Shown in pieces: positions 24,944 to 58,191 of a DNA stretch of 64,000 nt. The position numbers and the translations under genes were made by a program. The DNA is taken from positions 22,905-86,904 of the IMG/VR virus record IMGVR_UViG_3300045973_000445. One strand, 5' to 3'. Source of the DNA: a virus. Each line of letters opens with the position of its first letter. Within the stretch, counting starts at the first letter, position 1. The notes under the pieces are model-generated. The model did not search any database and had not been told where the DNA came from. It saw only the letters and a program-made list of their open reading frames with translations.

Positions 24944-26674
24944 TTAGAAGTATCTGATGCCCTGTATTGATTTTTTGACTTCTGCATCTTTCTTTATTTC
25001 AGAACCTTCTTTCAGATGTCTTTTCATAATCCCCACATACAAAGCATTATTAGGATACCCTAGTTCTTTCAAAGCAGATGCTATCTTCTTTTCATTCTGG
25101 ATGTCTTTGAAGTCCAACTTATCATAGACTTTTGCAGCTAAATCAAATAACTTTTCTTTTGCAGCTTTTGCTTCTCTTTCTCCCTTAGCTGCATCAGATT
25201 CTCCTTTATCCTTTTTATTTTGGTACTCGGTTATTTTACCTTTTTCATGTTTGTTATCATCCTCTCTCATCTTCTTCTGTCCTTCTGTCTGAATTTGATC
25301 TCCCTTAAGTTTAGGTTTGTTATCTTTTTTATCTCCACCACCCATAAACTCTTTACTTGGAAATTCTCCCTTGCCGTCAGACGGAGACTCTTCCTTTTTG
25401 CGCCTCTGCAACTCCGTGTGGGCTACCTGTCGGACAGTTGGATCAGGAGAGCTCTTTATGGCGTTTGTCAACGCCTGTTCGCTAGATTGCTTAGCATGTT
25501 CTGACAACGCTTCCTCCGACATCTTCCCTTCTCCACCTTCAGCTGGTTTATCAGCAGATGATTTGCCCTCTCCCTGTTTGATTGGCTGCCAGTCCTTCTT
25601 GCTATCCCCTGATTCCGACACCTTTTTCATCTGTACCCCATGCCATGTTCGGGTTTCCCCGATTTGGCCTTTTTTGCCCTTCTCAAATACATCCTTGCTG
25701 AGAATACCGTCTTCAAAGGCTTTGTATATAGTTTCCAATTCAGAATTGATTGACTTTTGTATCGTATTAGAATCATACTTTACATTACCAAAGTCTCCCG
25801 ATGATGTTGTGTAAGAAACCATATCACCTCTAACACCTGTAACTTTAGCTGATTCAAACATACCTGCATGTTTTTCTACTTTAATTTTATCCCCAACTTT
25901 GAATTTGTTTTTTCCTTTTCCACTTTCCAAATCCTGAGTCGATCCCCCGTTCACCATATTCCCGAATCTCTCCCCAGCACGACCATGTTTGAGATTTTCC
26001 TTTGTTGGCTTGTAAATGCCAGAACGGGACTTCTCAAATTCATCCCCCTCTGCCTTTATAATATGTACAGAGGGGGTGCGATCAAATCCCTTCGGAGATG
26101 CTGGTAGTACATGAGCATGTAGTTTCCCCTCTCCCTGTTTTACAAACTGGGATGCTCTCTTATTGGTAGTTACCATAAAGCCTTTGTTAGTCTTTAAAAC
26201 AGAGTAGTTCTCTGGCTTTGTCAGATGCTTTACTGCCGACTGCACCGTCTCCATCGAGGAGTACTGCATATCGCCATGTGCAGAGGATGCTGTTATGGTA
26301 GGATGACTTATTTTCTCATTCTCAGCTGACTGCTCTTTGGTAAGAGTATTGAGTTTATCAGTATGCTCGTTGAAGTGTTTCTGACGCTCATTGCGATGTT
26401 TTTGAGTAGTGAAATGAAGTTTGTGGGCATCAGACTCCCTCGATATCTCATGATGTTTATCGGCAGCATCCTTATGATCTTGTGCATTGAAGTCCTTATG
26501 CCCTTCATGCTCAAAGGTATCATAGATCGGCTTCCCTGACTTTGTATGTCCGATAACCTTCCCACCACGGGATCCTTCTCCTAATGCTTTCTCAAAGGAT
26601 GCATCGAACTCAGTTTCAACTTTTAGTTGCTGGTTGAGATTGTGCAGTTTTATAGATTTTTCGAAGTTTTCCAT
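24944..26674 (-). CDS. charged modular protein, putative internal head protein
   Basis: K/E/H-rich. Modules GEGSRGGKVIGHTKSGKPIY and GIYKPTKENLKHGRAGERFG. Many FEKS/FEKA/IQKS sites. Confidence 0.6.
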   Translation of the reverse strand: MENFEKSIKLHNLNQQLKVETEFDASFEKALGEGSRGGKVIGHTKSGKPIYDTFEHEGHKDFNAQDHKDAADKHHEISRESDAHKLHFTTQKHRNERQKHFNEHTDKLNTLTKEQSAENEKISHPTITASSAHGDMQYSSMETVQSAVKHLTKPENYSVLKTNKGFMVTTNKRASQFVKQGEGKLHAHVLPASPKGFDRTPSVHIIKAEGDEFEKSRSGIYKPTKENLKHGRAGERFGNMVNGGSTQDLESGKGKNKFKVGDKIKVEKHAGMFESAKVTGVRGDMVSYTTSSGDFGNVKYDSNTIQKSINSELETIYKAFEDGILSKDVFEKGKKGQIGETRTWHGVQMKKVSESGDSKKDWQPIKQGEGKSSADKPAEGGEGKMSEEALSEHAKQSSEQALTNAIKSSPDPTVRQVAHTELQRRKKEESPSDGKGEFPSKEFMGGGDKKDNKPKLKGDQIQTEGQKKMREDDNKHEKGKITEYQNKKDKGESDAAKGEREAKAAKEKLFDLAAKVYDKLDFKDIQNEKKIASALKELGYPNNALYVGIMKRHLKEGSEIKKDAEVKKSIQGIRYF

Positions 26675-26685
26675 TATAGTATATT

Positions 26686-27381
26686 TTATTTTCCTATTTT
26701 CAATCCCAGATATTCTTTAACGGTTTTCCAAACACCAGCTGATGCTTGTTGTCTTTGTTCTTTTGTAGCACCGTGAGTAGTACTTGATCCAGAAGATATG
26801 TATTGAGTAGACATAAATCTATCTACTTCAAATAAAGATTTTCCTTCTTTAAGAAGCTCCTGCATTTTAAGTACAGTATGGGTATATTTAATTCCTTGTA
26901 ATTGATCAGAACCCGTTCCAGCTGGGTATAATGCGCCTGATAACATACCAACACCACGACCCCCTAATTTCACATACCCCCGATTTCTATCCACCACAAC
27001 TTCTTTACCATCTATATGCATTCTACTTCCATGCAAAGTACCCTCTCCCTTAAACTCTATTTTAGATTCATTTGATTTTTCCTTCACTCCCATCTGCTTT
27101 CTCATAAGATGAGCTGTTCCACCATTATCAGGAACACTATCCACTAATCTTTGAAGTCTCTCATCCTCTGTTTCCTTCTCTCCTTCTTTCTTGCTTCCCT
27201 TTGGTACTGGCTTCCAGCCCTCAGCAGTCTTAACAAACTCCCGTCCCCCCTGCCACGTCTTCCTTGTGCCAATCGGTGCTGCCTTTTCGAGGAGCTCCTC
27301 GATAGGCATAACGTAGCCAAATTCTGTATTGATGGCCTTTTGAAGATTATGTTGCTGTAGTTCTTTTTCCCAGTTTTCCAT
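26686..27381 (-). CDS. putative internal head protein
   Basis: N-terminus resembles that of 24944..26674. LEKAAPIGTRKTWQGG module. Confidence 0.55.
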   Translation of the reverse strand: MENWEKELQQHNLQKAINTEFGYVMPIEELLEKAAPIGTRKTWQGGREFVKTAEGWKPVPKGSKKEGEKETEDERLQRLVDSVPDNGGTAHLMRKQMGVKEKSNESKIEFKGEGTLHGSRMHIDGKEVVVDRNRGYVKLGGRGVGMLSGALYPAGTGSDQLQGIKYTHTVLKMQELLKEGKSLFEVDRFMSTQYISSGSSTTHGATKEQRQQASAGVWKTVKEYLGLKIGK

Positions 27382-28265
27382 TATGCTGTTTTTATATTTG
27401 TTATCTCAATATTCTTGTTAGGGTTGTGCTTACAATTATCAAAATGATAATGATACATATTACTCTTTCCCTGAAACCCACAAAAAGGACATGCTAGAAT
27501 AGGTTTATTTCTTAAAGTTTCCCTTATCTTATTTCGATGACTTTCAGATACTACTCGATTTACTTTGCCTTCATTTCCTGGTTTCATTATACAATTATCA
27601 AAATGAAATTGCGTAGTCCCACTCCCACTTTTACTTTGAAAACCACACCACGGACAGGTTTTTAATTCACGAGTATCTGGTTTCTTTTCTTTAATAACTA
27701 CTATTCGATTAGGGTTCTTTTTACAATTATCAAAATGATATGTTCTCATATTAACTTCACTCTTACTTTGAAGCCCACAATAAGGACAGATAAGTATTGG
27801 TTTTTCACTAAATGTCTTTTTTATTTTCTCTTTAGTTGATTCCAATACAACATGCCCTATATTTATCCCTTTGCGATCTTCAATCATTGCAGATACTATT
27901 TTATCATAATCAGGATGATTAGTAAAGGTATCTCCTCCTCCACCCCCATTAGTTATATTATATCCTATTTCCCTATTTGTAGCTTTAAGTTCTGCAATCC
28001 ACCAAATTTCTCTTTCATTAAGATGATACTTATCTTTACAAAATTCAAGAATATCTCTTTTAAAACACTCATACTTATATTTCCTTATAGCATTATGAAG
28101 GGGTGTGTTGTGTCTGACACTACTTTGTCTACGAACACCATCACCAATATACCCATCATTCAATTTTTTAGTTTGATGTTTTCCCACATAGATTTTACCA
28201 TTTATAAGATTTGTAGTCTTATAAACTATAAAAAACATACCATCGTATTTAGTTCGAATCATCAT
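27381..28265 (-). CDS. GIY-YIG homing endonuclease with three CPxCG/HFDNC repeats
   Basis: IVYKTTNLINGKIYVGKH...E..WI...GYNI. Confidence 0.88.
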   Translation of the reverse strand: MMIRTKYDGMFFIVYKTTNLINGKIYVGKHQTKKLNDGYIGDGVRRQSSVRHNTPLHNAIRKYKYECFKRDILEFCKDKYHLNEREIWWIAELKATNREIGYNITNGGGGGDTFTNHPDYDKIVSAMIEDRKGINIGHVVLESTKEKIKKTFSEKPILICPYCGLQSKSEVNMRTYHFDNCKKNPNRIVVIKEKKPDTRELKTCPWCGFQSKSGSGTTQFHFDNCIMKPGNEGKVNRVVSESHRNKIRETLRNKPILACPFCGFQGKSNMYHYHFDNCKHNPNKNIEITNIKTA

Positions 28266-29020: not shown

Positions 29021-29796
29021 TACTTGTAGCTATTATCCTGTGTAACAATACCCCCGTCATAATCATTCAATCCCAAAACAACATGAGATTTCTTTAATAC
29101 AGCATTAATCGGCATATTAACTGATTCCATCTGACCGTTATTATTTACAACAGTAGCTGATCGACTGTCATGCGGAATATCTATGACATGATAAGAAGGA
29201 GCACATAAATAAGTAATTGTAACAGTATTATTAAAACCACTAGGAGGTACAAAGTTAAGCAATACTATGTACTTGTTATTTTCATCAATAGAATAATCAC
29301 TCGTACTAAGTTTAACCAAAGGCAGAGTTGATAACTCAAAGTAAAAGATATCTAGTATTTCTGTTGGCAAGTAAGTTGCAAAAACAAATAGCCGACCATC
29401 TACAGATCGTACCCTTAGAGTTTCACTTCGTTTTGATGTTATCTCAGTAAAAGTAATACGATCCATTTCAGCCAGTCTATTTACATTCATTAGTGAAACC
29501 ATTATAGTCCCCTTATTTTCCTCACTCCACTCAGTGCCGTATTTGCCTTTCTTATTGATGTTACTTATAATAGCCCTACTTTTTATAGGATTTAAAAAAT
29601 TCCACCCAAATCCTCTACAATTTTGACAATCTACTCTTGCAGCACCAGACTCTCGTGTTTGGCAAGGGCACTGTCGTGCTTCTTCCAACAAAATGGAGTA
29701 ACCCTGCTGCCAAAGCAAAGCATCAAAAGCCTCGTTGTTAAACGAAGCCTTCGGCTGACCTGCCAGTGGTGGGGGACTCTGAGTTCTTATTGTCAT
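29020..29796 (-). CDS. head closure/neck protein
   Basis: CPC...C..CRG.GW motif. Located after the adaptor. Confidence 0.65.
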   Translation of the reverse strand: MTIRTQSPPPLAGQPKASFNNEAFDALLWQQGYSILLEEARQCPCQTRESGAARVDCQNCRGFGWNFLNPIKSRAIISNINKKGKYGTEWSEENKGTIMVSLMNVNRLAEMDRITFTEITSKRSETLRVRSVDGRLFVFATYLPTEILDIFYFELSTLPLVKLSTSDYSIDENNKYIVLLNFVPPSGFNNTVTITYLCAPSYHVIDIPHDSRSATVVNNNGQMESVNMPINAVLKKSHVVLGLNDYDGGIVTQDNSYK

Positions 29797-30926: not shown

Positions 30927-30948
30927 AGACTATGATACAAATAATAAT

Positions 30949-32334: not shown

Positions 32335-32361
32335 GACTTAACAAATTAATTATTTAATATT

Positions 32362-32393: not shown

Positions 32394-32418
32394 GATGACT
32401 GATTAAGGAAAGAGAAGA

Positions 32419-33939
32419 CTAAGCTGGTATTGCTTTTCCGATATTCACAATCCTGGCAATCTTCTTAGGCGCAAAGAGCACCATCGTAAGGTAAGCCAAA
32501 ATCATAAATCTGAACGATGGGCTGGTTCTGGCCAGATCCATTCTCATGATCGGTGCAAGTTGTTTAAGAGCCCATACATCCAATGAGTTGTCAAGGACGA
32601 TGGTTGAGTGAGTGTTCGGGATGACCCTGTTACGGTCACGTACAGAAAGCTGAGCTGCTCCATCATAACCGGCTGCAAGTTCCGACTTGGTTATTGTTAT
32701 GATCGGGTAGAACTTAGCGGAAGCGTATGCTGTAGCTGCTTTCTCTGTGCGATATATAATAAGGCACTCAGCTGCGTATGCTCCATCCACATGTGTGAAG
32801 GTCAAATCCACCGATTCTGTTGCAACAACAGCCTGAACAGCTGTATCAAGAAGAGTCATTGCAGATTCACCGTAACGGTTCTTTGCAGTTACACCGTACC
32901 AGTATGAGCCCGCCCCATCGGTAAACCGTGTCTGGGTATCAGCAGGTACTGCTGTAGTTGAGTTTGTTATCGGGTTGGTTGATAAAGGAGCAGTAGGTGC
33001 TTTAGCACTTGTTGCAGCCTCGTTGTAGGCTTTCGATACTTTATAATCAAAGAAGATGTCACTTACAACGTTGATCTTGCCAAACTGTGTCATGATGTCG
33101 TTGACCGACTGACCCATTGTAGCTCCCTCAACACCACCCTGTTGACCAACGATGATCCTCTTGGATTCGTGGAACTGGCTGACGTAGTTTGAGAATACGA
33201 TTGGAGGCCCTATGATGGTACTTACCATTCCGAAGTTGTCGTTTACAACGCCATGAGCAGCATCTTCAACCATCTTATCAGAAAGGATGTATCCACGAGC
33301 ATCAACAACGCTCGAATCGGCAAAATACTTGTTCAGGTTGGCTGCACTTGGAAGAGCTGCACCAGTTACGCCTGTATAATGCTGTTTGAAGATTCCATCG
33401 AATTCGTCTTCGATCAAACGGCTGTCCGATACAGGATATGCTTTGTTGAGAGCCCTCAGAAGGAACTGAGTTTTATTTTTTACTTCCTGTGCAAGAGCAT
33501 CTCCTACACCTGATCCAAGTCTTACAAGTGTAAACGGGTGGGTGACCTCACCTGATACTCCGGTATACTTGATCAGCACAGATTCCCTACGGTAGATCGA
33601 ATCAGTAAACTGAGGGGTTTCCCCTTCTTTGTTAAAGATTCCGATATTCAAACCGTAATCAACCAGCTGGTTGAATTCTTCCACGGTGTTGTATGCATTC
33701 TGTTTCGGCAGAATCTTGTGCAACACGATGTGCTTATCCTGAGATGTTAAAATCTTCAGCATTGGTTCCAGTGATTCTGTTTTCAAAGCAGCTCCACTTG
33801 TCAGAGTGCCGATAAGACCCTGTCCTGTGGTATCACCAGCAGACATTGCCTTAGCAAGTTCATAAATCTTATCCGGAGAATCAATACCAGGGAACACCCC
33901 AGTCTCAAGCCCAGCGTAGTTGTATAAATCAGCGTTCAT
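32419..33939 (-). CDS. major capsid protein (Herelleviridae-like)
   Basis: KAMSAG...GAALKTESL..LKILT, TVEEFNQL..YG, EGETPQFTDS.Y.R, EFDGI, QLAPIMRMDLA. Confidence 0.92.
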   Translation of the reverse strand: MNADLYNYAGLETGVFPGIDSPDKIYELAKAMSAGDTTGQGLIGTLTSGAALKTESLEPMLKILTSQDKHIVLHKILPKQNAYNTVEEFNQLVDYGLNIGIFNKEGETPQFTDSIYRRESVLIKYTGVSGEVTHPFTLVRLGSGVGDALAQEVKNKTQFLLRALNKAYPVSDSRLIEDEFDGIFKQHYTGVTGAALPSAANLNKYFADSSVVDARGYILSDKMVEDAAHGVVNDNFGMVSTIIGPPIVFSNYVSQFHESKRIIVGQQGGVEGATMGQSVNDIMTQFGKINVVSDIFFDYKVSKAYNEAATSAKAPTAPLSTNPITNSTTAVPADTQTRFTDGAGSYWYGVTAKNRYGESAMTLLDTAVQAVVATESVDLTFTHVDGAYAAECLIIYRTEKAATAYASAKFYPIITITKSELAAGYDGAAQLSVRDRNRVIPNTHSTIVLDNSLDVWALKQLAPIMRMDLARTSPSFRFMILAYLTMVLFAPKKIARIVNIGKAIPA

Positions 33940-33974: not shown

Positions 33975-34688
33975 TTATTTAACCAGGCGGATGCCGAAGT
34001 TCTCAAACAAGTCCATCGCAACGGTCTGGTTTATTGTTCCACCCCCACCATTGTATCGTACGATAGAATCCTCGTAGCTTTTCTTAAGCTCAGGCTCAAC
34101 GGCTTTATTCATGCCGTCTTCAAGACTCTTCAGGATCTGCTCCTTGTGAGCTGATACAGAAAGCATCTTCTTTCCACTCTCATCTTCCTGCTCGCCACCG
34201 AGGGCTTTCTCAAAGAAGTTAGCTCCCATTGCGTTTTTGATTGCTTTATTGCCAAGAGGCATGTCCGCAATCTTCTCAACGAGGGTAGTTACAGAATCGA
34301 TAGATTTCTGAAGATCAGCAATCCTGTCCTCTGTATCGAGCGACTTCTGAATCATCTCGGTAACAGTCTTGAACTTGCTGTTCATCTCATCTGAGAGACC
34401 CTTTAGCATTTCAGAAGAAACTGCTTTTTCAGTATCCTCTTCTTTTTTCTCTTTCTCTTTGGATTCCCCAGCTTCGTGTTCTTCCTTATCTTCCTTGTCA
34501 TCTTCCTTGTCATCTTCTTCCCCTTCTTTGTCTTTTTCCCACGGCTTCTCGCCCTTTAGGAACTCGACAACTTCAGGGAATGCACGAAGTTTAGAGGAGT
34601 CTTCACTCTTCATAAACTCGGCATAATCATCTGTCGACAGTAATGTCTTGAATGATTTTATGGTTTCAATAGCCTGATTGCCTGTCAT
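33975..34688 (-). CDS. putative scaffolding protein
   Basis: Acidic/coiled-coil protein between protease and capsid, rich in xxKS/KA/KG sites. Confidence 0.7.
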   Translation of the reverse strand: MTGNQAIETIKSFKTLLSTDDYAEFMKSEDSSKLRAFPEVVEFLKGEKPWEKDKEGEEDDKEDDKEDKEEHEAGESKEKEKKEEDTEKAVSSEMLKGLSDEMNSKFKTVTEMIQKSLDTEDRIADLQKSIDSVTTLVEKIADMPLGNKAIKNAMGANFFEKALGGEQEDESGKKMLSVSAHKEQILKSLEDGMNKAVEPELKKSYEDSIVRYNGGGGTINQTVAMDLFENFGIRLVK

Positions 34689-34769: not shown

Positions 34770-35603
34770 TTAATTTTTTAGTTTATTATGCAACCCCTTC
34801 TGAATCGCCTTCTTTGTATCCTTTGTGAAGTTGTCCCAGTTGTCCGCAGCCCAGTTTACACTGGCTATCGGAATAGTTAAGATTTTTAAATCAGGATCCA
34901 ATGATTCTGTTTTAAGAGCTGCCCCACTTGTTAAATCCCCTACAAGCCCCTGTCCTGTTTCAGCACCAGCACTCATTGCCTTGGTAATTGTGAAGTCCTT
35001 GTTCAAAGTAAATTCACAGTCTCCCAACATCCCTTTAAAAAGATAATCCACGTTTGCAGGGATGTCATAATCAAGACTTTCCTGAACCGTACTCATACCT
35101 CCCTTACATATATCAGCATATGTCTGACCATTTTTTGGCATGAACGTTAATGCCATATGGGTGATCATTGCTTTAGTGATATGATTCTTGTTATGAGGAT
35201 CCAATTGTAAAGGAACACCCTCAATAGACCAAGCTAACTTTCTGTCACTTCCTGATTCCTTCATGATATGCACAGTATCCCAAAGATCACGAGCCAATGG
35301 CGACTTCTCCCACAATCTAGCTTTTACAAAAAGTTTATTGTCCTTAATCTCAGCCATTACAGGTTCTCCTACGAATGCCTTTGGTGATTTCTTTGCCCCG
35401 TGTTCGTAGTTCACAAGTCCTTTGCTTTTGAATACACTCAGCTCAAATCCACTAGGTTCTAGTGATTGCTCATCTGTATCATATGCATTAGTTGAAGCAC
35501 ATCCCTGAAGATACATATTTTTATATCTGTTCTCTCCTGTTTGTTCTCCTGCTTTTTCTAATCCATCTACAGGCACAAAGAAATTAAAATGTTCGTTTTT
35601 CAT
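34770..35603 (-). CDS. prohead protease (HK97/herpes-type fold)
   Basis: G.AST...D...Q, VNYEH, WSIEG, ALT..P.N. Confidence 0.88.
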   Translation of the reverse strand: MKNEHFNFFVPVDGLEKAGEQTGENRYKNMYLQGCASTNAYDTDEQSLEPSGFELSVFKSKGLVNYEHGAKKSPKAFVGEPVMAEIKDNKLFVKARLWEKSPLARDLWDTVHIMKESGSDRKLAWSIEGVPLQLDPHNKNHITKAMITHMALTFMPKNGQTYADICKGGMSTVQESLDYDIPANVDYLFKGMLGDCEFTLNKDFTITKAMSAGAETGQGLVGDLTSGAALKTESLDPDLKILTIPIASVNWAADNWDNFTKDTKKAIQKGLHNKLKN

Positions 35604-35608: not shown

Positions 35609-38600
35609 TTATTTTAATTCAGTTACTTTTGCTTTCATCTTTCCAATCTCTTTCTCTAAACTCTTTACATTCTCTTCTTTTGATTTGATCTTAAGCTGCT
35701 TAAAAGAGTCCAACGTTTGTTGTCTGTATTTTAATTTTGATGCATCATACGTCTCTTTACTATTATTAAAATTAACAGCTGCCCCTCGACTTACGATTTC
35801 GTCCCAGTCAACATTAAGACGCATATAATTCTCACTCTGTTGTAAGATTTCATCATCTGTTAATTTCTTAGCTGTTTCGACTTCTTGTTTATACAACACA
35901 ACCCGTTTTGTGTAAGATTCGATTTCTTTATTGAGTTTTTGTACTTTAGTTAACTTTTGGATCTTTTCTTTAATCTTATCCGCTTCCTCTGTGTTGTTTG
36001 TTTTTGGTAATCTTGTATTTGTTAGATAACGGAAATGCAACTGTTGTATATTATATCCACCAGCATATATAACTTCTGTATGAAAATGATACCTTTGTCC
36101 ATCTCTATTTATGGACGCTTCAACTACAAAAGAACCGTTATTACCAACCCTCGAACTTAAATCGCTTAAAACATCTGTAGGTTTAGTATATACATTAATA
36201 GCTTTAACTAAATTCCAAACTAATGACAATCTAGTCAATTCTTTATCATACTTACCCATTTGAGATCTGTCATGTTCCTTAGCGTAGGCATCTTCATATA
36301 ATTTAGCAATACGTTCTATTTCCGGATCCATCACAGCAAGGATCGACTCAGTTAAAGTATTAGATTTTTGTTGATTAGTATTACCCCTCTCCATACCATA
36401 ATGCTGACCAACTCTACCTAATTTACGATTCTCATCATCATTCACATAAACACCTTTCTCAAACACATCCTCCATCGCCTTCTGAAGTTCAGGAGACCCA
36501 CAAATATCTGACATCGTCTTGAGCACCCCGTGATTATCCAGGATAACATCCATCGGGATCAAAGCATCTCTGTAAATAAGCCCATTCACACGCACCGCAG
36601 GTGCTATCTGCTTTGGTACAAAGTCATCCGCATGTTGTGTGTAAACACAATCAGCTATTTCAGTATCCTTCATCCCCTTCCCTCGCAAAGCATAGTACTG
36701 CTCCTTTGTTATCTCGATGCAAGGCACTAGCTGTTTATTCATCTTAGCCACCTCCAGCCTCACCCCTCCATCAATAACCAATCGGTTCATCCCATCCTTT
36801 ACAGCAACCACGGGAGGCATCGAGTGAATCGAGTAATCCTTTCTTAACTTAATTGTAGGCTTGTGTAGCTTTACCTTCTCCTCCTGACTGATTCCCATAG
36901 TCCACGGAGAATTCAAAGTAATACTATGCTCATCTCCTCTCTCAGAAAGCCCTCGCTCAACCTCTTTATACTGACTCCAATGATCCAAACTCATCTTATC
37001 AACCCTATGTGGGAGCATCTTAGATATAGGCTGTTCCGAGGATACACTCTTTGCCGTGATCCTACTATGTACGTTCAATACTGTTCTGTCATTCGTTTTG
37101 AAGTACTTGTCAAAATGCTCTTTATTCAGATTGTAAAAGGAATAATACTCCGCAAACGCTTCACTGGGTGATTTATGCGAGTAATCCGTTATCAAAGTAA
37201 CTGATGCATTCGATCCCCCTCTTGGTATATTCTTTTGATCGCCTGTAGCGGATAAACCTCTTCTCAGCTCTTCCTGCTGATACGACCATCCACATTCAAC
37301 AGTAAACTTCTTATAATCATACGTGGCTTTTCCACCTATCTTTTTATCTACGGCATGTCCTATTTCATGTAGCATGACCGATTTGAACTCTGTAGGCTTG
37401 CCTAAGACACCCCAGTCGGCTGCTCGCTCCACGCACTTGGCACTCAGATTGATTCGTTTTTCATTCGCACTGTACCAAGCATATCCTCCATGATCGCCCC
37501 CAGAGTAATCCTTATTTGTAATCAGGTTCAGCTCATCGTTTGTTTTGAAATGCCCGTCTGGAAGTTCATTTATGATATTCTCCAAGTTCTGAATCGCTGG
37601 CAGATGATCCATCGTCCAATCTCCCTCTACTGATTTATTGTAATGCTTCATAAACCGTAGGTAAATCAGATCTTTGAACCCACCCCCAAACTCATCATAG
37701 TCCTTTGATAACTTAACACCTCCCGACTTCAGTCGTTCAATCAAATTCAGTTCAAGACCATCATCTCTTTTGTAAGTAAGCTCATCATGTGTAGTTTCAT
37801 TATCATCCACAGCCTTAATTGTCTTCCAAAATAAACGTACTCGATGTGTTCCTGACCAATCTGTTATTATTGTAATCTCCTTTCCTACATACTTTTCCAG
37901 AAAACTATAGTCCTGATTCTTTGCCTTTGCATAAATCTTAGAATAAAACTCATCCGGAGTCATATCGATAGTCACTCCGTACATCTTCATCTGCTCGTCC
38001 AAAGAATCCTGAGTGATTCGATCCGAATACTTCTTAACATACTCATCGAACTTCTTCTGAGCATAGTCCTTGCACGATTCCCGTACTCCCCAGTTGTCTT
38101 GGAACGCCCCCTCAATCATATCTACGGCATCAAACTTAGTCATTCTTTTCTCTGACATCAGCTTATACTCCTCTGGCAAAGAATCTGCCAGTTTCTTAAA
38201 CTCATCATAGATTGCTTTCTTTTCAGGATCCTTAAAATCCAACCCCTCTTTTACCTGATCCCGTGTGCGCTTTACAATATCCAGTAGCTGTAATGCCTTC
38301 TCCTCATTTATAATATCTGGATCAGATTTAAAATCAGCTCGTACCTGTTTGCGTATTTCTTTTTTTGTTTCATCTGAAAGTTTATCAAGAACACGATCAC
38401 CACCAGCATCCTTATTAGCATCATTTAATGCATTAGCAATAGCCTCGGAAAGATTCATGTCATTCTTCATAAATAGTTCAGAGAATTTATTTCTGAAAGC
38501 ATACCTACCTGCACCATACCATCCTTCAGATTTTTTAAATTCATCTGAATTAAAGAAATTCCCCCCTTCAGCTTCTCCAAATAAATTAATCTCATGGTCA

Positions 38601-38803
38601 AGGCACTTCTCACCATTGATAGGAACTTTGCAACCTATAATCTCCCGTGCAGTAGCATCTGCCTCTCTACCAATCTGATCAAAGCGAGCGTTTGTCTTGA
38701 CAGGAATCCAGCCTGAACTATAGGGGGGAAGAGGATCATGGGCTTTTATCATCGGCCCCTGAGCCCATTCATGAATCACGCCCACAGGACAGACTTTTCC
38801 CAT
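35609..38803 (-). CDS. multidomain protein: zincin metallopeptidase + ParB-like domain
   Basis: VMLHEIGHAVD...YSHKSPSEAFAE. ParB-like PPVVAV...LVIDGGVRLEVAK. Confidence 0.75.
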   Translation of the reverse strand: MGKVCPVGVIHEWAQGPMIKAHDPLPPYSSGWIPVKTNARFDQIGREADATAREIIGCKVPINGEKCLDHEINLFGEAEGGNFFNSDEFKKSEGWYGAGRYAFRNKFSELFMKNDMNLSEAIANALNDANKDAGGDRVLDKLSDETKKEIRKQVRADFKSDPDIINEEKALQLLDIVKRTRDQVKEGLDFKDPEKKAIYDEFKKLADSLPEEYKLMSEKRMTKFDAVDMIEGAFQDNWGVRESCKDYAQKKFDEYVKKYSDRITQDSLDEQMKMYGVTIDMTPDEFYSKIYAKAKNQDYSFLEKYVGKEITIITDWSGTHRVRLFWKTIKAVDDNETTHDELTYKRDDGLELNLIERLKSGGVKLSKDYDEFGGGFKDLIYLRFMKHYNKSVEGDWTMDHLPAIQNLENIINELPDGHFKTNDELNLITNKDYSGGDHGGYAWYSANEKRINLSAKCVERAADWGVLGKPTEFKSVMLHEIGHAVDKKIGGKATYDYKKFTVECGWSYQQEELRRGLSATGDQKNIPRGGSNASVTLITDYSHKSPSEAFAEYYSFYNLNKEHFDKYFKTNDRTVLNVHSRITAKSVSSEQPISKMLPHRVDKMSLDHWSQYKEVERGLSERGDEHSITLNSPWTMGISQEEKVKLHKPTIKLRKDYSIHSMPPVVAVKDGMNRLVIDGGVRLEVAKMNKQLVPCIEITKEQYYALRGKGMKDTEIADCVYTQHADDFVPKQIAPAVRVNGLIYRDALIPMDVILDNHGVLKTMSDICGSPELQKAMEDVFEKGVYVNDDENRKLGRVGQHYGMERGNTNQQKSNTLTESILAVMDPEIERIAKLYEDAYAKEHDRSQMGKYDKELTRLSLVWNLVKAINVYTKPTDVLSDLSSRVGNNGSFVVEASINRDGQRYHFHTEVIYAGGYNIQQLHFRYLTNTRLPKTNNTEEADKIKEKIQKLTKVQKLNKEIESYTKRVVLYKQEVETAKKLTDDEILQQSENYMRLNVDWDEIVSRGAAVNFNNSKETYDASKLKYRQQTLDSFKQLKIKSKEENVKSLEKEIGKMKAKVTELK

Positions 38804-38962: not shown

Positions 38963-41434
38963 TTATTTACTTTTACTTCTCATCATTTCATCAAAAGCAC
39001 CTATTACACTATCAAAGTTAGATACTATCTTTCTCTTGATCCTATCTGTATCCAATCCCTGATTTAAAGCTCTGTTGGCTATAACCACTGCCGTGTAGTA
39101 TGTTCTGGTATTCAGATCGTTTCCTAGCTTATCCTTATTCTCTTTGATCATTTCATAAGCCAAATCACGTGCTTCTTGAGTTACAGGGATAATAGTTGTT
39201 TTATCAGCTGAATAAATATCTATTTTATCTTTAATCATACCTAGCTTTAAGACAGTCTCATCTACTGTCATGGTGAGATTACTACAAAGAGCTCTAGACT
39301 TAACTGCCTGTGCTATATCCTTCGTGGTTAAGTTTGTAATTGCAATAACCCGTCCTTTAAATGAGAATACATCTGGTATTTTTCCAGATTCCTTATCTCC
39401 CTCAATTATATAAGCATTCCTTCCTGTTTTGTTATCTATCTGAGAATCTTCTCCGGAATCCAAACCAGATTTTAAAAATCCCTGCACGTCTTCCGTTATC
39501 AAAAACGAATCACAGTCATCAAAAATGATTAACTTATCCCGATGCCGAAACATCTCTGCGTAAACCTGAACAGGAGATATCCTACCCTTTATAACCACAT
39601 AATCATACTGATCTTTATTAGGTTGAATCTCAGCATCAAATCTCCTGAGATTCATTTCTTTTAGTAATCTATTTAGCTCAAAGGTTTTCCCAACCCCGCC
39701 TGTACCATATGCTATTGCAAACTTAGCTCCAGCATCCCCCTCAATAACCATCTGAAGGCTGTCCTTGTAATCATCCCACAACTCTTGTATATCTTCTGGT
39801 TTACGAGTAAGCATCTTGTTTTGCTCTTTAGCTTCTGGAGTATCGTTGTTGGCCTGTTCCTTCCGAATCTCGGTCTTTATCGTTTCGGACTGATCTGGCA
39901 GATCTTTGAGATTGATATCGGCCTGCTTGATATATCGCTGTGGATAGGTCTCCCCTGTGAGAAGTGTCAGAACTTTAGGATCGTATATCCCCATGTTGAT
40001 TAAGCTGTAGACCTTCTCATTCTTCTTCATCGATCCTCCAGCTATAGCTGCCACTGCATCTTCAAAGGTTTGCCCTTCGACCTTTTCCGTTTCCTTTGTA
40101 TCTGCAAACTTCTCCGACTCGCCTGTTGCTGGGTTCACCCAGCGAATAGCGTAGTGAATCTGGCCAGACTTGGCTTTAATTTGGACTTTCTTTGGGATCA
40201 GGTGTCCTAGTGCTCTTGCCTTCTCAAACTCGGCAAACTCGCTCTTTTCGATGGTTTTCAGCTTGCTGTAGTATTTTGGATTTTCCCACAAGTGATCCCT
40301 TGTTATCTCACTTCTTTCTTCGGCATCAGTAGTATGTTCTCTCTCTTCCGTTACACCAATCTGCCATTCCTTTGTAAGCTCTTCAAGGCTGATTTTATGT
40401 TTCTTAGCGATGTCCTCAAGAGTCTTCCCATCGGCACGACCTCCCTGAAGTTTCTCTTCTTTTTCAAAATCAGGGGGCTGCATCTTCTGTGCTTTCATAA
40501 ACCCACCCTCAACCATCTTCCCGATAATCTTCTCATCCGATAGAGATATCACTTTCTCATTCTTGACCAGTCCTTCGGCCACAGCCTTCTTAATACTTAC
40601 CACCTCTTCAATACCAAGAATCTTATAGACGTTATCCCACATATTTATAAATTGAGTAGGATAACTATAAAGATCTTTAACTGAAATAAAAGCAGTAGCC
40701 CGTGTTTCATCAACATCCACTACAGGAGACTGCTCCCTATCATCAATCATCGACATAAAATAATCTATGTGAATCTTATCTTCCTCAAACTCACCTACCC
40801 ACCTACAATCATCTACTTCAAAGCCTGTTTCCTCCAATAACTCCCTCCTTGCTGCCACTTTTATATCCTCTCCCAAATCCACATGTCCTCCAGGAAGAAC
40901 CCATAAATTTGTACCCTTTTCTGCACCACCAAGAGGCTGACGCTGCACAATCAAAATCTCCCCGTTCTGATTAAACACAATGTTATCAGAATACCTAACT
41001 TTGTCCTTTGTAATGGCCTTGATCAACATATCACACTCATCCAAAGCCAGCTCATTATTCCGATAAGATAAGAGGGTGTTTTCTATAAAGTCATTCCTTT
41101 TCAAATCGGCTAATGCTTTCTCAAAATCAGGATGCTTTACTATATATGATTTTTTGCTGTCTTCCAGCTTGGTGTATTCCTGTTTCTTTCCACTCAAGAA
41201 ATTCAGATATCTCGATGTCAGACCATCCTGCTGGGATTTGATCAGCTCCAGAACCTCTGGTTCCTTTTCTGCTTTTTGCCATACATCCAGTTCCTTCGTA
41301 CTGTTCAAGTACTCTCGTGCCATCAGATCAATCTCTGACTTTAGCAATTCCGACTGCTCTATCACTAACGCAAAATCACGAAGGGCTTCCTCCGTGCTTT
41401 CCAAATGCAAAAAACGTCTGAGTTCTTGAAACAT
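38963..41434 (-). CDS. multidomain protein: NUDIX hydrolase + DUF5661-like + P-loop ATPase
   Basis: NUDIX box GGHVDLGEDIKVAARRELLEETG. G..EEREHT...DHL.E.P.YY. Walker A GTGGVGKT, Walker B LIIFDDCD. Confidence 0.85.
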   Translation of the reverse strand: MFQELRRFLHLESTEEALRDFALVIEQSELLKSEIDLMAREYLNSTKELDVWQKAEKEPEVLELIKSQQDGLTSRYLNFLSGKKQEYTKLEDSKKSYIVKHPDFEKALADLKRNDFIENTLLSYRNNELALDECDMLIKAITKDKVRYSDNIVFNQNGEILIVQRQPLGGAEKGTNLWVLPGGHVDLGEDIKVAARRELLEETGFEVDDCRWVGEFEEDKIHIDYFMSMIDDREQSPVVDVDETRATAFISVKDLYSYPTQFINMWDNVYKILGIEEVVSIKKAVAEGLVKNEKVISLSDEKIIGKMVEGGFMKAQKMQPPDFEKEEKLQGGRADGKTLEDIAKKHKISLEELTKEWQIGVTEEREHTTDAEERSEITRDHLWENPKYYSKLKTIEKSEFAEFEKARALGHLIPKKVQIKAKSGQIHYAIRWVNPATGESEKFADTKETEKVEGQTFEDAVAAIAGGSMKKNEKVYSLINMGIYDPKVLTLLTGETYPQRYIKQADINLKDLPDQSETIKTEIRKEQANNDTPEAKEQNKMLTRKPEDIQELWDDYKDSLQMVIEGDAGAKFAIAYGTGGVGKTFELNRLLKEMNLRRFDAEIQPNKDQYDYVVIKGRISPVQVYAEMFRHRDKLIIFDDCDSFLITEDVQGFLKSGLDSGEDSQIDNKTGRNAYIIEGDKESGKIPDVFSFKGRVIAITNLTTKDIAQAVKSRALCSNLTMTVDETVLKLGMIKDKIDIYSADKTTIIPVTQEARDLAYEMIKENKDKLGNDLNTRTYYTAVVIANRALNQGLDTDRIKRKIVSNFDSVIGAFDEMMRSKSK

Positions 41435-53242: not shown

Positions 53243-53243
53243 T

Positions 53244-53585
53244 CTACCAGAAAATAGAGAATGTTGCTGTTGTACCTGTTTTGTAAACCTTCTTAATTAG
53301 AAAGGGTAGTGCCTGACCAATATAAACAGCCAGCTGTGCTGCTGTAAATATGAAGTACTGTGTTCCCGTCTGATTTATCAGTTGGACCTTGATCTCACCA
53401 GCATCCACTTCAGGAATGATCTGAAAATAAGGGGGAATCCGACTCAACTTCTCATCGTTGTTCCCTACACCAAACTGTGAAGGTTCAAGGTCTACTGATC
53501 TTGTAGACATATCAATAATAGGACTTGGCTGATCTGGACTCCAGGAATCTACACCAAATAACTTATCAACTGTCAATACTCCCAT
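53244..53585 (-). CDS. putative head-spike base protein (RcGTA Rcc01079-like)
   Basis: C-terminal G..LP..IKKVYKTGTTAT...W. Directly precedes the GLGLGL fibre. Confidence 0.6.
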   Translation of the reverse strand: MGVLTVDKLFGVDSWSPDQPSPIIDMSTRSVDLEPSQFGVGNNDEKLSRIPPYFQIIPEVDAGEIKVQLINQTGTQYFIFTAAQLAVYIGQALPFLIKKVYKTGTTATFSIFW

Positions 53586-53606
53586 TGTATTCTATATTAA
53601 ATAACT

Positions 53607-54338
53607 TCAAAATTTACCTGTTAAACCTCTACGCACACCTTCCCAAACACCAACCCCAATTAATGAATGAACCCACCACTTATCAATCCATCTCTGATTA
53701 TCCTGGATGATGACCACATCCATTGTATTTATCTTTATATACTTGTTTTCTGTAGAGAATATACCCTTTGGCACTAACTTCAAATTCAGAAATCCAGTTC
53801 CAACATAACCTATTGAAATACTACCTGAAAAAGGAGTATCCAACTTAAACCATGCTTTCTTTGTAGAATCCAGCCCAGCATCAAGATTCAGATATTTATC
53901 ATGCTGTTCTAGTAATTGGAACGGATACCGAACATAGTTCCTTTTGACTCCTGATGAATCCTTTATTGTTATATACTCTGTTTTTGGAGGTAGTCCTAGT
54001 AATGAGTCCTGTCTATGTATAGTTCCTGACAGTTCTGTATTCGTAACCAGATCTTTCATGTGTATCTTCTTCAGAAGCTCTTCTCTTACCAGTCCTGCTT
54101 TGATAGCATCTTCCTGTCCTATTATAATAGCATTCTTTTCCCAGACCTGATTCTGCACCCCCTTTATCTTTACGGTAAGATGTCCTATGGAATCTTTAAG
54201 GGCTATTATGTTGCTCACCTGCTGCTCTAACACTCTCTTGGTGCTGCACTTGCCAGCTACAAACGCAAGGGCTACAAGCCCAGCAAACAGGCAAACGAGC
54301 ACTACTATTTTCTTATACTTTAACCAGATCTCTTTCAT
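53607..54338 (-). CDS. membrane protein with N- and C-terminal TM segments, possible spanin
   Basis: N-terminal TM ending AGKC, coiled coil, C-terminal WWVHSLIGVGVW. Confidence 0.45.
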   Translation of the reverse strand: MKEIWLKYKKIVVLVCLFAGLVALAFVAGKCSTKRVLEQQVSNIIALKDSIGHLTVKIKGVQNQVWEKNAIIIGQEDAIKAGLVREELLKKIHMKDLVTNTELSGTIHRQDSLLGLPPKTEYITIKDSSGVKRNYVRYPFQLLEQHDKYLNLDAGLDSTKKAWFKLDTPFSGSISIGYVGTGFLNLKLVPKGIFSTENKYIKINTMDVVIIQDNQRWIDKWWVHSLIGVGVWEGVRRGLTGKF

Positions 54339-56038
54339 TTTGCGGATAATTCAGTATTTATGTATTTTATCAATTCATTTGTAATCGGGTCTTCTGACTT
54401 CCCCTTCTGCATCCCTTCTTCAAAAGAATCAAATGGATTTTTTGCCCCACTGGAATCTCCTCCATTTTGCTGGTCAACCATTCCGTTCATTCCTGCGCCC
54501 CCGAAAGCCTGCTGAGCTTTTTGTTGTGCGTACACGCTATTTAAAATTGTATCCTTTTCAGGATCGAATACTCTCCCAGAATACTCTTTAAATTTATCCT
54601 CAAGTGAAACCATGCCGTTAGCCAACTTCTTTACATCATTGTCTAGTTTTTGCGTCTGGTCTTCCACATCAACTCCTGTAAAAACAAACTGATAATTTGA
54701 ATCAAACTCAGAAACTATAAACTTGTCTATATTCTTTTGAATCACTTTAAGCAGGGGCTTCAGCCCTTTATCCTTGCTGTGATCCTGACGTTGCTTTTGT
54801 CCCCCCTCACCAAACAGAGTGGTCTGCTGACTAAACCGAAATCCTAGCTCTGAGGGATCCATGTGAAACACGCTACAGGCCACCAACGTCAGAAACTCCA
54901 TCCATTTGCTGAACTCCATCTCTTTGTTGGTATTTTGCATATCCACCCAGTTCAGCTTATCCGCCTCAAAGATCGGAACCTTATGAGCATTCTGCCAACC
55001 TGTAACCATCGATCTCCAAGCCGACCGGAAGTCATTAAGCATTCTGGGGTCTACCCCACCCTGCATCGTAAAGAACCCACGTGGGTTTGATCCATTCGTA
55101 AAGAACCGACCATTATACTCCATTGACTCCAGAAGCCATGTGACGACACGCATCAGAACCTCCAGTTCGCTCTGACCGTATCCATTGGCCATAATAGAAC
55201 TCTGCTTGTTGCGTACCGCAAAGCACATCTCCCACGGATACCAAATCACATCCTGTTTTGTTTTTGGATTCTGAAGAACCCTCTCACGCCACACCTGAAC
55301 ATAATGAGGAAGATACTCATGCCCTTTGTAATTCAAAGACTCATACTTCCCATTTTCTGTGTTGTAATTAGGATCGATGGTCTCCAGCAACCTGATCGTT
55401 GCACTGTCCACACAATCATACGATAGCAAATCCCCTCCCCGTGTGCGCTGAGTCTCAAAGCACCCCTGATCAAGCTCAAGCATGTCCTTTGGGAATATCT
55501 TTAAAAAGTCATGGAAGTCATTGTGAACAGTAAACTTGGCATCAATACCCCCGTTCTCCAAGAAGTCAATTATCTTCTCAATAGCCCGTTTATCCTTATC
55601 TGTGTTCTTATACTCCTCTTCGAATCGTCCCATCCTACGTTTGATCGTCCACCCAGGCTTTCCTTCATCATCCGAATAATCAGCAAAATCTAGTATCTGA
55701 TTGATACGTGTGCTGATTACAGAAAAGATCATCGGGGTAGCTCCCATCGAACGCAAGAAGTCAAACGGCACAGTCTTAACGGCTGTCTTGTAGCCCATAC
55801 CTGTATAAAACTCATTATCGGGAGCAAACAGGAATGCCTTCTGCTGATCTTTAAAATCCTTACCAGTCATCGACTGCTGATACTGCAATGCCTTCATAAT
55901 ATCATCTGGCTTATTGCTCTCCAGCAACCGCTGATGCAACAGCGACTTATGAATAGATAACTTCTGCATCTGTTCATCAATCGCTGGCAGCGTCTGAGGA
56001 AGCCTTATTGCTGTATTTCTGCTTTTTCGATTTGACAT
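54335..56038 (-). CDS. portal protein
   Basis: GYGQSELE...FFTNGSNPRG...W...G.QNAHKVP...EMEFSKW...DPSELGF...GLKPLL. Confidence 0.92.
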   Translation of the reverse strand: MSNRKSRNTAIRLPQTLPAIDEQMQKLSIHKSLLHQRLLESNKPDDIMKALQYQQSMTGKDFKDQQKAFLFAPDNEFYTGMGYKTAVKTVPFDFLRSMGATPMIFSVISTRINQILDFADYSDDEGKPGWTIKRRMGRFEEEYKNTDKDKRAIEKIIDFLENGGIDAKFTVHNDFHDFLKIFPKDMLELDQGCFETQRTRGGDLLSYDCVDSATIRLLETIDPNYNTENGKYESLNYKGHEYLPHYVQVWRERVLQNPKTKQDVIWYPWEMCFAVRNKQSSIMANGYGQSELEVLMRVVTWLLESMEYNGRFFTNGSNPRGFFTMQGGVDPRMLNDFRSAWRSMVTGWQNAHKVPIFEADKLNWVDMQNTNKEMEFSKWMEFLTLVACSVFHMDPSELGFRFSQQTTLFGEGGQKQRQDHSKDKGLKPLLKVIQKNIDKFIVSEFDSNYQFVFTGVDVEDQTQKLDNDVKKLANGMVSLEDKFKEYSGRVFDPEKDTILNSVYAQQKAQQAFGGAGMNGMVDQQNGGDSSGAKNPFDSFEEGMQKGKSEDPITNELIKYINTELSAK

Positions 56039-56907: not shown

Positions 56908-56920
56908 TGATCAGGGAATA

Positions 56921-57235
56921 TTACAGAAGTTCTAAGCCAATAGCACCACCATAATACGTTCCCTGATACAAGACATCATCCTCACGGCCAGTTTCAACTG
57001 CCGTCAGGGTCAGATCATTATCAGATGCAAACTGAATCATCTCACCAAGATCGTATTCAGAAATAGCAAAATCGAACCCTGCTCTGATTGTAGCATCGGT
57101 GAGTCCTATCTGCATCTTGCCCGATGAGTCACGCTCCTGAATCTGATACACGGTAAACTGCTGATTACCATCGATCAGGTCTGTGAGAAGCTCCACCTGC
57201 AATCCACTATCGTCTTGAAATATTAAAGTCTTCAT
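56921..57235 (-). CDS. acidic hypothetical protein
   Basis: 104-aa ORF ending YYGGAIGLELL. Confidence 0.6.
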   Translation of the reverse strand: MKTLIFQDDSGLQVELLTDLIDGNQQFTVYQIQERDSSGKMQIGLTDATIRAGFDFAISEYDLGEMIQFASDNDLTLTAVETGREDDVLYQGTYYGGAIGLELL

Positions 57236-57279
57236 TTATTAAAAAGTTTATATTATTGTCAAATATGGTTATTTCTTAT

Positions 57280-58191
57280 TTATTCTACTGGAGTTACCTT
57301 CTTCACAAGTTTTGTAACGTATCGAGGATATTCATATCCTTGAGGATCAATTAGAAACCTTGTGCCGTTTACTTCAGCAATGTAGGGATTTCCTTTTGCC
57401 TCTTTGGGACAATCCTTACTCAAAAAATTAGTACCTTGTTCATGTACAGGTAATCTGTCAATCAATGCCTTTATTTCTGGTGTGATTGCTGTCTGTTCAA
57501 CATCATCTACATTAGGCTCTTTCCGAGAGTAGTTAACCAAATCATGTAGTTTATCCACTTCAGCTGTAGATAGCTTTTTCCCTCCTTTATTTTGCTCTTT
57601 TTCAATCTCTTCTTTAGACATATCCTGATCAGGCATGTAATCCCTTCCCTGTTTTTTCAAATCATCCTTCTTTTTCTGAAAAAGATCATCTGCTAGTTTT
57701 TTCATACTTGGTGAAAGTTCCTTCTTCTCACCACCTTCTTTTTTGTATTTAGCTGGCCATTCTTTTGCCTGTTCCTTTAGTGTACGATGCTTAATAGCAT
57801 CTGTTTCATTTGAATTAGCCTCACCATACTTCTGACCAACCCTACCCAGCTTCTTATTCACACCAGTGAGTTTATACACACCACCTCTTGCCTTCAGAAT
57901 CTCCCCGAATTCCCCACGCTCAGGCTCGTCCCAAGCGATCTGTTCCCGTCTCGTATAAACCACCGCCTTTGAGAAATCGTTCCTTAGAACGCACCACTGT
58001 TGCATTCCTCCAACCTCGGCTATCATCTCATTAGAGTCAGCTTTCTCAATCTCAGATAACTCTGAAGTGAGAGCCTTCTCCATGTATCCCTTTATGATGT
58101 TGGTATTTTGTACCAGCTGAGACTGAGTGATAACCTCCAAGTGCTGGAGTCTCACCATGCTGAGGAAGTCGTCTTTGGTTATTGTTTGCAT
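57280..58191 (-). CDS. putative internal head protein
   Basis: ILKARGGVYKLTGVNKKLGRVGQKYG module. Likely start is MQTITK at 58191. Confidence 0.6.
   Translation of the reverse strand: MQTITKDDFLSMVRLQHLEVITQSQLVQNTNIIKGYMEKALTSELSEIEKADSNEMIAEVGGMQQWCVLRNDFSKAVVYTRREQIAWDEPERGEFGEILKARGGVYKLTGVNKKLGRVGQKYGEANSNETDAIKHRTLKEQAKEWPAKYKKEGGEKKELSPSMKKLADDLFQKKKDDLKKQGRDYMPDQDMSKEEIEKEQNKGGKKLSTAEVDKLHDLVNYSRKEPNVDDVEQTAITPEIKALIDRLPVHEQGTNFLSKDCPKEAKGNPYIAEVNGTRFLIDPQGYEYPRYVTKLVKKVTPVE

Follow-up and report, generated by a model that had tools for sequence, protein, structure and literature searches.

A short peptide module behind a putative protease site heads unrelated payloads in phage proteins encoded near head genes and recurs in eukaryotic kinases

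Short conserved motifs that stand between a delivery part and a variable effector are known from polymorphic toxins (pre-toxin motifs such as VENN of CdiA) and from type VI effectors (MIX), and short glycine-rich peptides occurring as transferable tags or arrays bind the lumen of HK97-fold shells (encapsulin cargo-loading peptides) or the minor groove of DNA (AT-hooks). In phage T4, the internal proteins IPI-III and Alt carry an N-terminal capsid targeting sequence that is cut by the prohead protease gp21, the propeptide of Alt comprising 7 residues (PMC9026906). Polyvalent proteins, according to the work describing them (Iyer, Burroughs, Anand, de Souza, Aravind 2017, PMC5512222), are multidomain late-gene products with host-directed enzymes that are predicted to be packaged, processed and injected, and eukaryotes have captured binding domains from them. 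Here we analyse a 26-residue peptide module that recurs in a 64,000-nucleotide stretch of virus DNA, hereafter the window (positions 22,905 to 86,904 of IMG/VR record IMGVR_UViG_3300045973_000445, an 86,904-base or 86.9 kb virus contig). The window covers, on one strand, the structural half of a large myovirus whose nearest named relatives are the Bacteroides thetaiotaomicron phages DAC16-23 and SJC03 (capsid identity 39%). The original prediction for this DNA held that the module is shuffled among three unrelated proteins, that each copy follows a predicted K-[S/G/A] cleavage site, that it would form a new N-terminus after maturation and that it could serve as a tag for DNA binding or ejection. 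Our data tentatively favour a protease-cut junction followed by a tag that would be kept on packaged, probably ejected, head cargo, a reading whose chances we put somewhat short of even.

A six-frame regular-expression scan found exactly three copies of the module in the whole contig, all of them in minus-strand genes of the head region and with the peptides as originally quoted (Table 1). One copy lies beside the portal gene, one directly upstream of the protease gene and one between the sheath and capsid genes, and the carriers are proteins of 303, 1064 and 576 amino acids (aa). A core-only hidden Markov model (HMM) of 20 residues, trained on 156 database copies including that of P0014, which matches the 576-aa carrier in length and module stretch, returned the three copies at E values of 1.4e-10, 1.4e-8 and 2.2e-8, the next best match having an E value of 2.5. 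Copy 1 (context FEK↓SRSGIYKPTKENLKHGRAGERFG; the arrow marks the predicted bond) belongs to a variant subfamily, N-L-K-[HQ]-G-R-A-G-E-R-[YF]-G-N-M (30.4 bits, domain E 2.1e-8), copy 2 (FEK↓GVYVNDDENRKLGRVGQHYG) is a short form with the Lys three residues ahead of the Tyr (36.3 bits, E 1.4e-10), and copy 3 (ILK↓ARGGVYKLTGVNKKLGRVGQKYG) is the canonical long form (30.4 bits, E 2.2e-8). Each copy is preceded by K-S, K-G or K-A, 0 or 3 residues before [VI]-Y, and nine residues are invariant across the three. At the DNA level, 31 of 108 alignment columns are invariant and many codon positions differ, which argues for selection acting on the peptide; the same codon differences ruled out a recent internal DNA duplication. 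The regions behind the three copies are unrelated to each other, with a single weak low-complexity match in an all-against-all BLASTP comparison, and the three carriers contain no domain recognisable by Pfam or PHROGs.

The original proposal that the module precedes diverse domains in otherwise unrelated proteins holds far beyond this genome. A profile of the three copies matched 760 protein clusters at E<=0.001 (100 of them at E<=1e-10) among 1.84 billion representative proteins. The best 150 of the 760, to which the following descriptions of database carriers refer, comprise 129 phage-type and 21 eukaryotic proteins. A strict match is present in 118 of the 129 phage-type proteins, giving 134 copies (104 single, 12 double, 2 triple), and the remaining 11 have looser copies. 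The phage consensus reads acidic-acidic-[ILF]-E-K-[AS]-[RK]-[SG]-G-[VIT]-Y-x-[DN]-T-x-E-N-R-K-L-G-R-V-G-Q-[KR]-Y-G; a short form, [ILF]-E-K-[GA]-[VIT]-Y, is found in the database too, copy 2 being an example. In general terms, the phage form consists of hydrophobic-x-Lys-[Ser/Gly/Ala], 0-5 residues and then [VIT]-Y-x-[DN]-[TN]-x-x-N-R-K-L-G-R-V-G-x-x-Y-G.

Three layouts are seen among the carriers. In the first, a 22-residue N-terminal helix (predicted local distance difference test, pLDDT, ~90) ends in I-x-K-[SAG]-F, after which come an acidic spacer, the module (residues 25-75) and unrelated tails; many carriers are small proteins made up of such a helical leader, the module and a variable tail, and 59 of the 118 proteins have their first module no later than residue 80. 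In the second, which is the family of the 303-aa protein, a conserved N-terminal domain of ~95 residues precedes the module and unrelated tails (AlphaFold model of the 303-aa protein: mean pLDDT 80.6, module 73-84). The third has large trunks and, behind them, one to three modules that each introduce a different domain (P0026, P0054, P0063, P0012). Two or three copies, each ahead of its own payload, are carried by 14 of the 118 proteins. The window's 1064-aa protein is collinear with P0054 (43-53% identity) up to ...FEK783, at which point the module follows in the former and DUF5661 in the latter; P0004 is a homologue of the 576-aa protein. Among 66 proteins scanned, the payloads include NUDIX (7), DUF5661 (4), DUF6496 (3), Zeta_toxin, ADPrib_exo_Tox and MORN_2, while 34 proteins gave no family. 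In phage DAC19, DAC19_77 consists of leader, module and Zeta_toxin (1e-32). In DAC19_82, a stand-alone protein of 354 aa, residues 90-282 follow the leader and the module and share 37% identity with the P-loop part (residues 549-734) of an 823-aa protein of the window. More than one domain is recognised in this 823-aa neighbour (NUDIX, DUF5661 and P-loop) and in database carriers that combine NUDIX, DUF5661 and DUF6496.

Two sets of 32 proteins each, relatives of the 303-aa protein and leader-type carriers, lose their conservation right after G-Q-K-Y-G, and trunks stop exactly at ...FEK. Such sharp borders would suit a module without activity of its own, that is, a conserved linker or a recombination joint that marks domain swaps. 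We consider this highly improbable, as the copies have not kept the DNA identity that recombination calls for, the alignment of the 32 leader-type proteins has 12 invariant positions and another 6 with at least 90% conservation, and the eukaryotic repeats described below conserve the same residues.

Comparison with known families yielded little. The three proteins had no relevant match in Pfam at E<=1, where no polyvalent-associated family appeared, and matched no family of PHROGs or NCBIfam. The 1064-aa protein found no match among PDB sequences, and a word-indexed homologue search with its residues 765-815 gave 5 candidates, none of which scored. For the model of the 303-aa protein, Foldseek retrieved nothing from the PDB at E<=0.001, and the structure matches in BFVD were uncharacterised phage proteins only. 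Looked up in the ESM Atlas, the module region had no usable feature match and only structural rows with TM<0.5, DNA patterns derived from the three-copy alignment, which are poor patterns, selected 140 stretches of which none was confirmed, and a full-text literature search for the motif strings of the module, judged partly by title, found nothing relevant. To judge from these searches, the module is an undescribed, widespread peptide. The module profile retrieved only CheR from the PDB sequences, at E~1, which was taken as chance; CheR (PDB 1af7/1bc5) contains LEKARSGIY, identical to the start of the module's long form.

Because the upstream consensus of the database copies is biased by a query profile that itself contained upstream residues, a core-only model was built and run over 12 loci of relatives, obtained with a core-only DNA pattern or from DAC19. 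In 21 of 21 copies located in this manner, [FLIMVY]-x-K-[SGA] stands 0-5 residues before [VIT]-Y. The K-[S/G/A] element that had been said to precede each module was thus recovered by a model lacking upstream information, and by this measure the Lys site is part of the conserved phage module. The position of the Lys varies among the 21 copies (-3, -4, -6 or -8), which is more easily reconciled with an element that functions separately than with a single rigid fold. Together with the multi-copy proteins and with the trunk, whose end at FEK may or may not be followed by a module, this variable spacing suggests that site and core would be separate functions that have been joined.

Sites of the type hydrophobic-E-K-[SGA] occur 17 times in 23 head-block genes, a set partly chosen after the motif had been seen, as compared to 2.8 +/- 1.7 in residue shuffles (maximum 9 in 1000), and twice in 32 other genes, with 2.1 expected. 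Their bearers are the three carriers, the 823-aa, 166-aa, 231-aa and 1055-aa proteins, the scaffold and the protease. A related junction, ELAK30↓A31MSAG, is present in the major capsid protein, of which 47 homologues, reaching down to 49% identity, show no variation at K30 and at least 90% conservation at A31; hydrophobic-x-K↓A is also kept in the capsid proteins of four IMG/VR relatives and DAC19. The pattern K↓A-x-S-[AG] is common to capsid protein, protease tail and module, the latter having K↓A-R-S-G versus K↓A-M-S-A-G in the capsid protein. The capsid protein belongs to the same family as those of Herelleviridae (PDB 9vel, 2e-55; 5lii and 9row, ~1e-12), and in SPO1 Gp6.1 (PDB) the stretch ALNK↓ALEAG aligns to the one around K30↓A31. 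For a K-like Staphylococcus phage, the PDB holds capsid protein chains of 463 (5lii) and 439 residues (9row), offset by 24, from which a kayvirus capsid cleavage after Lys24 can be deduced. The K-like Staph1N Mcp (463 aa) reads ...DVVK24↓S25FQTGYG and Listeria phage LP-125 Cps ...DALK↓SFTTGYG at this place. The site predicted ahead of the module therefore resembles both the capsid bond K30↓A31 and the implied kayvirus bond Lys24↓Ser25. Unlike in Herelleviridae, where only a cut of the capsid protein is implied, the junction type recurs 17 times here in cargo-type proteins and is fused to a tag. Hydrophobic-x-Lys↓[SGA] is most likely the cutting site of the phage's own head-maturation protease.

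Residues 201-243 at the C-terminus of the protease are 72% identical to capsid residues 23-65 (43 aa), including K↓AMSAG, and a similar likeness is present in the relative L010. The protease looks as if it were addressed into the procapsid by mimicry of the capsid N-arm and then cut loose. Other short peptides begin right after hydrophobic-E-K-[SGA] as well, namely ..G-x-x-R-T-W-x-G...W-x-P-[IV] in the 576-aa and 231-aa proteins, ALGEGSRGGKVIGHTKSGKPIY in the 576-aa protein and ARALGHLIPKKVQIKAKSGQIHYAIRWVNP in the 823-aa protein. The Lys junction seems to serve several kinds of mini-module.

From the constancy and position of the motif, its gene neighbourhood and the likeness of the sites, we infer that head cargo would be built with a two-part junction. 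Part 1 would be hydrophobic-x-Lys↓[Ser/Gly/Ala], and part 2 the 18-residue core Y-x-[DN]-[TN]-x-x-N-R-K-L-G-R-V-G-x-x-Y-G, which would become the new N-terminus of the downstream part once the bond is cut. The conserved upstream delivery part, be it the 22-residue helical leader, the ~95-residue N-domain or a large trunk protein, would bring the precursor into the procapsid, where the protease would then cleave at the Lys site. Downstream are fast-swapping payloads (NUDIX, a zeta-toxin-like kinase, an ADP-ribosyltransferase, a P-loop ATPase and many unknowns), and the basic, glycine-rich core would tether the freed payload to some generic partner, the packaged DNA being the simplest choice. 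Thus tagged, the payload would stay in the head and exit with the genome. Nucleic acid is weakly favoured as the ligand of the core. A test for an AT-hook found no R-G-R-P, the core of the module being L-G-R-V-G without proline, and the likeness to AT-hooks is limited to the Gly-flanked Arg and the array layout. To our knowledge, the module has no sequence relation to known encapsulin cargo-loading peptides. Its position at a junction is analogous to that of VENN and MIX, from which it differs in sequence, delivery machine (a phage head) and taxa.

The arrangement resembles the T4 internal proteins (PMC9026906) in its small conserved N-terminal elements before unrelated payloads, in the putative protease site at the junction, in an ADP-ribosyltransferase payload and in very short propeptides. 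It differs in the site, which is Lys↓[Ser/Gly/Ala] here and [L/I]-x-Glu↓ in T4, and in the fate of the conserved peptide: T4 loses its targeting sequence, but the 18-residue core, lying behind the site, would remain attached to the payload. Moreover, capsid and protease belong to the SPO1/Herelleviridae-type lineage. With polyvalent proteins, as portrayed in PMC5512222, it may have in common that multidomain late-gene proteins carry host-directed enzyme domains. In contrast to them, the module is absent from prokaryote genomes: the strict pattern N-R-K-L-G-R-V-G-Q-x-Y-G had 0 matches in 185,579 prokaryote species (one genome each), which argues that it is not a feature of prophages, plasmids or conjugative elements. 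In addition, no polyvalent-associated family of Pfam was matched, and the motif strings are not in the full text of PMC5512222. Finally, processing is ascribed here to the head serine protease rather than to a zincin, although a HEIGH motif in the 1064-aa protein may allow for a zincin too.

As a DNA pattern, the same strict motif detected 15 stretches on 9 IMG/VR contigs, of which 11 were analysed as loci, the 4 overlapping ones being dropped. At all 11 loci on the 9 contigs, a homologue of portal, protease, capsid, scaffold or terminase is encoded within 10 kb of the module gene. The outcomes named beforehand as counting against the original prediction did not occur: the HMM turned up homologues in 760 clusters, and the phage copies stand in head-gene neighbourhoods and behind the site. 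Five related records have 6, 1, 2, 1 and 1 matches; the three among them rated 97-100% complete account for the 6, 1 and 2. DAC19 has 5 copies, one between portal and protease and four clustered near large fibre-like genes. A tblastn search of 50,697 phage records with a 45-residue stretch matched 9, including 6 Bacteroides phages (E 0.03-8); the 3 Haloarcula virus matches lie in DNA polymerases (E 3-7) and were taken as chance. Among 759 phage records with a relative of the capsid protein, module matches were present only in the 6 Bacteroides phage records, and not in Firmicutes phages. The carriers form a clade of large lytic myoviruses with an SPO1-type capsid, and the cultured members found infect Bacteroides only.

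A constant position before variable payloads in the neighbourhood of head genes would also be expected if the core acted before cleavage, as a capsid-loading peptide that docks the precursor on scaffold, portal or the inner face of the HK97-fold capsid after the fashion of the T4 targeting sequence or an encapsulin cargo-loading peptide, the Lys site serving for later release. The core is a short motif, rich in glycine and hydrophobic-spaced (L-G-R-V-G), the capsid N-arm copy of the protease suggests that peptide-based addressing exists in this phage, and the T4 targeting sequence provides a precedent (PMC9026906). Nevertheless, we hold this to be unlikely, though worth keeping in mind. The conserved upstream parts, that is the confidently modelled leader helix and the N-domain, are better candidates for addressing, and the proteins with two or three copies suggest that each fragment needs the tag after separation. 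Furthermore, the module is missing from those Herelleviridae that share the capsid and protease family, as seen in the 759 records, and no capsid partner exists for the eukaryotic tandem arrays. When the 45-residue module stretch was modelled in complex with the capsid protein (47-row alignment), the score was 0.00 in a run without controls, which gives no answer either way.

The 21 eukaryotic proteins contain the 18-residue core in tandem, with 149 repeats in total, 3-13 in each protein and a period of ~40 residues. Their consensus is a Ser-rich linker followed by [KR]-[TV]-Y-V-D-N-[AS]-x-N-R-x-L-G-R-V-G-[ML]-P-x-G-[ST]. A Pkinase domain is present in 19 of the 20 eukaryotic proteins scanned; P0043 had no family match, and P0130 was outside the scan. 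The named sources are gastropods (Physella, Biomphalaria, Bulinus, Candidula, Plakobranchus and Gigantopelta), the oyster Saccostrea, the starfish Acanthaster and the metamonad Carpediemonas, and the proteins sit on contigs of 0.13-47 Mb. Against a phage-only model, 150 of 174 single repeats reached at least 20 bits and 42 at least 30 bits, the best one (37.9 bits) scoring as high as the window's own copies. An artefact inflated by repetition was ruled out as the source of these matches, since scores of up to 38 bits come from single repeats, as compared to a shuffled maximum of 9.0. The kinases are not virion proteins and lack the Lys-[SGA] element. This eukaryotic occurrence was not part of the original prediction. 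The arrays suggest that the core would bind something generic, or itself.

One possibility that covers both settings is that the 18-residue core (Y-x-D-[NT]-x-x-N-R-x-L-G-R-V-G-x-x-x-G) would be an autonomous, portable binding peptide, not yet described. Phages would put it behind a protease site, so that released payloads carry it into and out of the capsid, and molluscs, an echinoderm and a metamonad would hold arrays of 3-13 before TKL-type kinases. All of these would be instances of a single mini-domain, ancient or spread by horizontal transfer, with a ligand in common, for which nucleic acid is the simplest candidate. Taken as a whole, this proposal appears rather unlikely to us. If it were true, the head cargo of phages could be predicted and engineered by a sequence rule, and the repeats would count as a new type of sensor module in invertebrate kinases.

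The core could instead be a portable peptide for an intracellular target, steering payloads to a conserved component of the cell and effective only once delivered, or else in proteins that do not enter the head at all, with the kinases recruiting in the same manner. The high scores of single eukaryotic repeats speak for this, as does the beads-on-a-string layout with its regular period and Ser-rich linkers, which is typical of multivalent binding motifs. In addition, the payloads are host-directed enzyme types, and eukaryotes took DNA-binding domains from phage polyvalent proteins, according to PMC5512222. What such a target leaves unexplained is the constant Lys-[SGA] site of the phage copies and their head-gene context, and no candidate common to Bacteroidota, molluscs, starfish and a metamonad is known except nucleic acids or membranes; we regard it as quite improbable. 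Alternatively, the core might associate with itself, so that cargo would gather into one internal body of the head, and kinases, clustered through their arrays, would activate one another. A homotypic function can transfer between kingdoms without a shared partner, several carriers are encoded per genome (3 copies in the contig, 6 matches in one complete relative and 5 copies in DAC19), and each kinase has 3-13 repeats. The motif is highly charged with few hydrophobic residues, though, and we see little prospect for self-association.

Returning to a cut junction whose tag stays on packaged cargo, several points weigh against it. First, the kinases carry the core without a Lys site or capsid, implying that the function of the core is not capsid-specific. 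Second, DAC19 has four of its five copies at a distance of 75-90 kb from its head genes. Third, MENFEK↓S occupies leader residues 4-7, where a cut would remove only six residues, and the AlphaFold model of the 303-aa protein packs the module on the N-domain, which could bury the Lys-Ala bond. Fourth, the kayvirus cut Lys24↓Ser25 is deduced from deposited chain lengths. Last, the bias in the upstream consensus of the best 150 and the partly retrospective choice of head genes for the enrichment test, both mentioned above, temper the respective results.

If the junction rule is true, the sequence would reveal which proteins are packaged and injected in an entire clade of uncultured phages from gut and environment, as well as in cultured Bacteroides phages, with cargo being everything after hydrophobic-x-Lys↓[SGA] plus core. 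The fast-changing payloads are candidate enzymes for counter-defence and host takeover. The combination of leader, cut site and 20-residue tag offers a possible handle to load foreign proteins into phage heads, like the T4 targeting sequence. The same 18 residues in animal and protist kinases represent an unexplained cross-kingdom link that points to a generic ligand.

Table 1. Features of the window. Positions refer to the window; the arrow marks a predicted bond.
Feature	Position	Strand	Remarks
Terminase	3084-4769		
576-aa string-of-modules protein	24944..26674	-	leader MENFEKSIKLHNL..., four hydrophobic-E-K-[SGA] sites, copy 1, more short modules
Module copy 1, FEKSRSGIYKPTKENLKHGRAGERFG	25961-26038	-	ORF (open reading frame) 24944-26674 (576 aa), residues 213-238
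231-aa protein	26686..27381	-	N-terminal leader (MENWEKELQQHNL...), then LEK↓A and a different short module (..RKTWQGG..GWKPV)
Major capsid protein, SPO1/Herelleviridae type	32419..33939	-	putative maturation bond K30↓A31 at 33847-33852
Scaffold-like acidic protein	33975..34688	-	with NFFEK↓ALGG
Head maturation protease	34770..35603	-	phrog_1028, 4.4e-35; candidate enzyme for Lys-[SGA] sites
1064-aa protein	35609..38803	-	directly upstream of protease gene; conserved trunk to FEK783, copy 2, unrelated C-terminal part
Module copy 2, FEKGVYVNDDENRKLGRVGQHYG	36395-36463	-	ORF 35609-38803 (1064 aa), residues 781-803
823-aa cargo-type protein	38963..41434	-	NUDIX, DUF5661, P-loop domain; three hydrophobic-E-K-[SGA] sites, no module
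Portal protein	54335..56038	-	upstream limit of head/cargo gene block
303-aa protein	57280..58191	-	conserved ~95-residue N-terminal domain, copy 3, variable tail
Module copy 3, ILKARGGVYKLTGVNKKLGRVGQKYG	57823-57900	-	ORF 57280-58227 (listed as 315 residues); true start most likely ATG at 58191, giving 303 aa

Baseplate and sheath genes are also located within the window, which encodes four proteins of 823-1064 residues. In the trunk of the 1064-aa protein, a HEIGH motif (zincin-like) followed by a ...VIDGGVRLEVAKMNK... stretch (ParB-like) was noted by eye, a reading that received no support from Pfam, PHROGs, NCBIfam or the PDB sequence search. The two stretches recall DdrB of phage P1 as presented in PMC5512222. 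The adjacent 576-aa and 231-aa proteins share a leader, MEN[FW]EK..(I/L)..HNL.. (36% identity over 72 residues), and a leader of the same MEN[FW]EK.. type is found at the N-terminus of many database carriers. P0023, P0054 and P0063 end in a hydrophobic glycine-rich segment, ..AIKT.(F/G).HMALVIGS..GG.., which looks membrane-active and might be that of ejection proteins entering the envelope. Two paralogous homing-endonuclease genes with zinc-ribbon repeats lie inside the structural block, at 27381-28265 and 29793-30926 (phrog_314, 5e-37 and 1e-44), with GIY-YIG families among the weaker matches. Between tail genes, a 390-aa ORF on the plus strand (15930-17102) stands opposite a 372-aa ORF on the minus strand (15957-17075).

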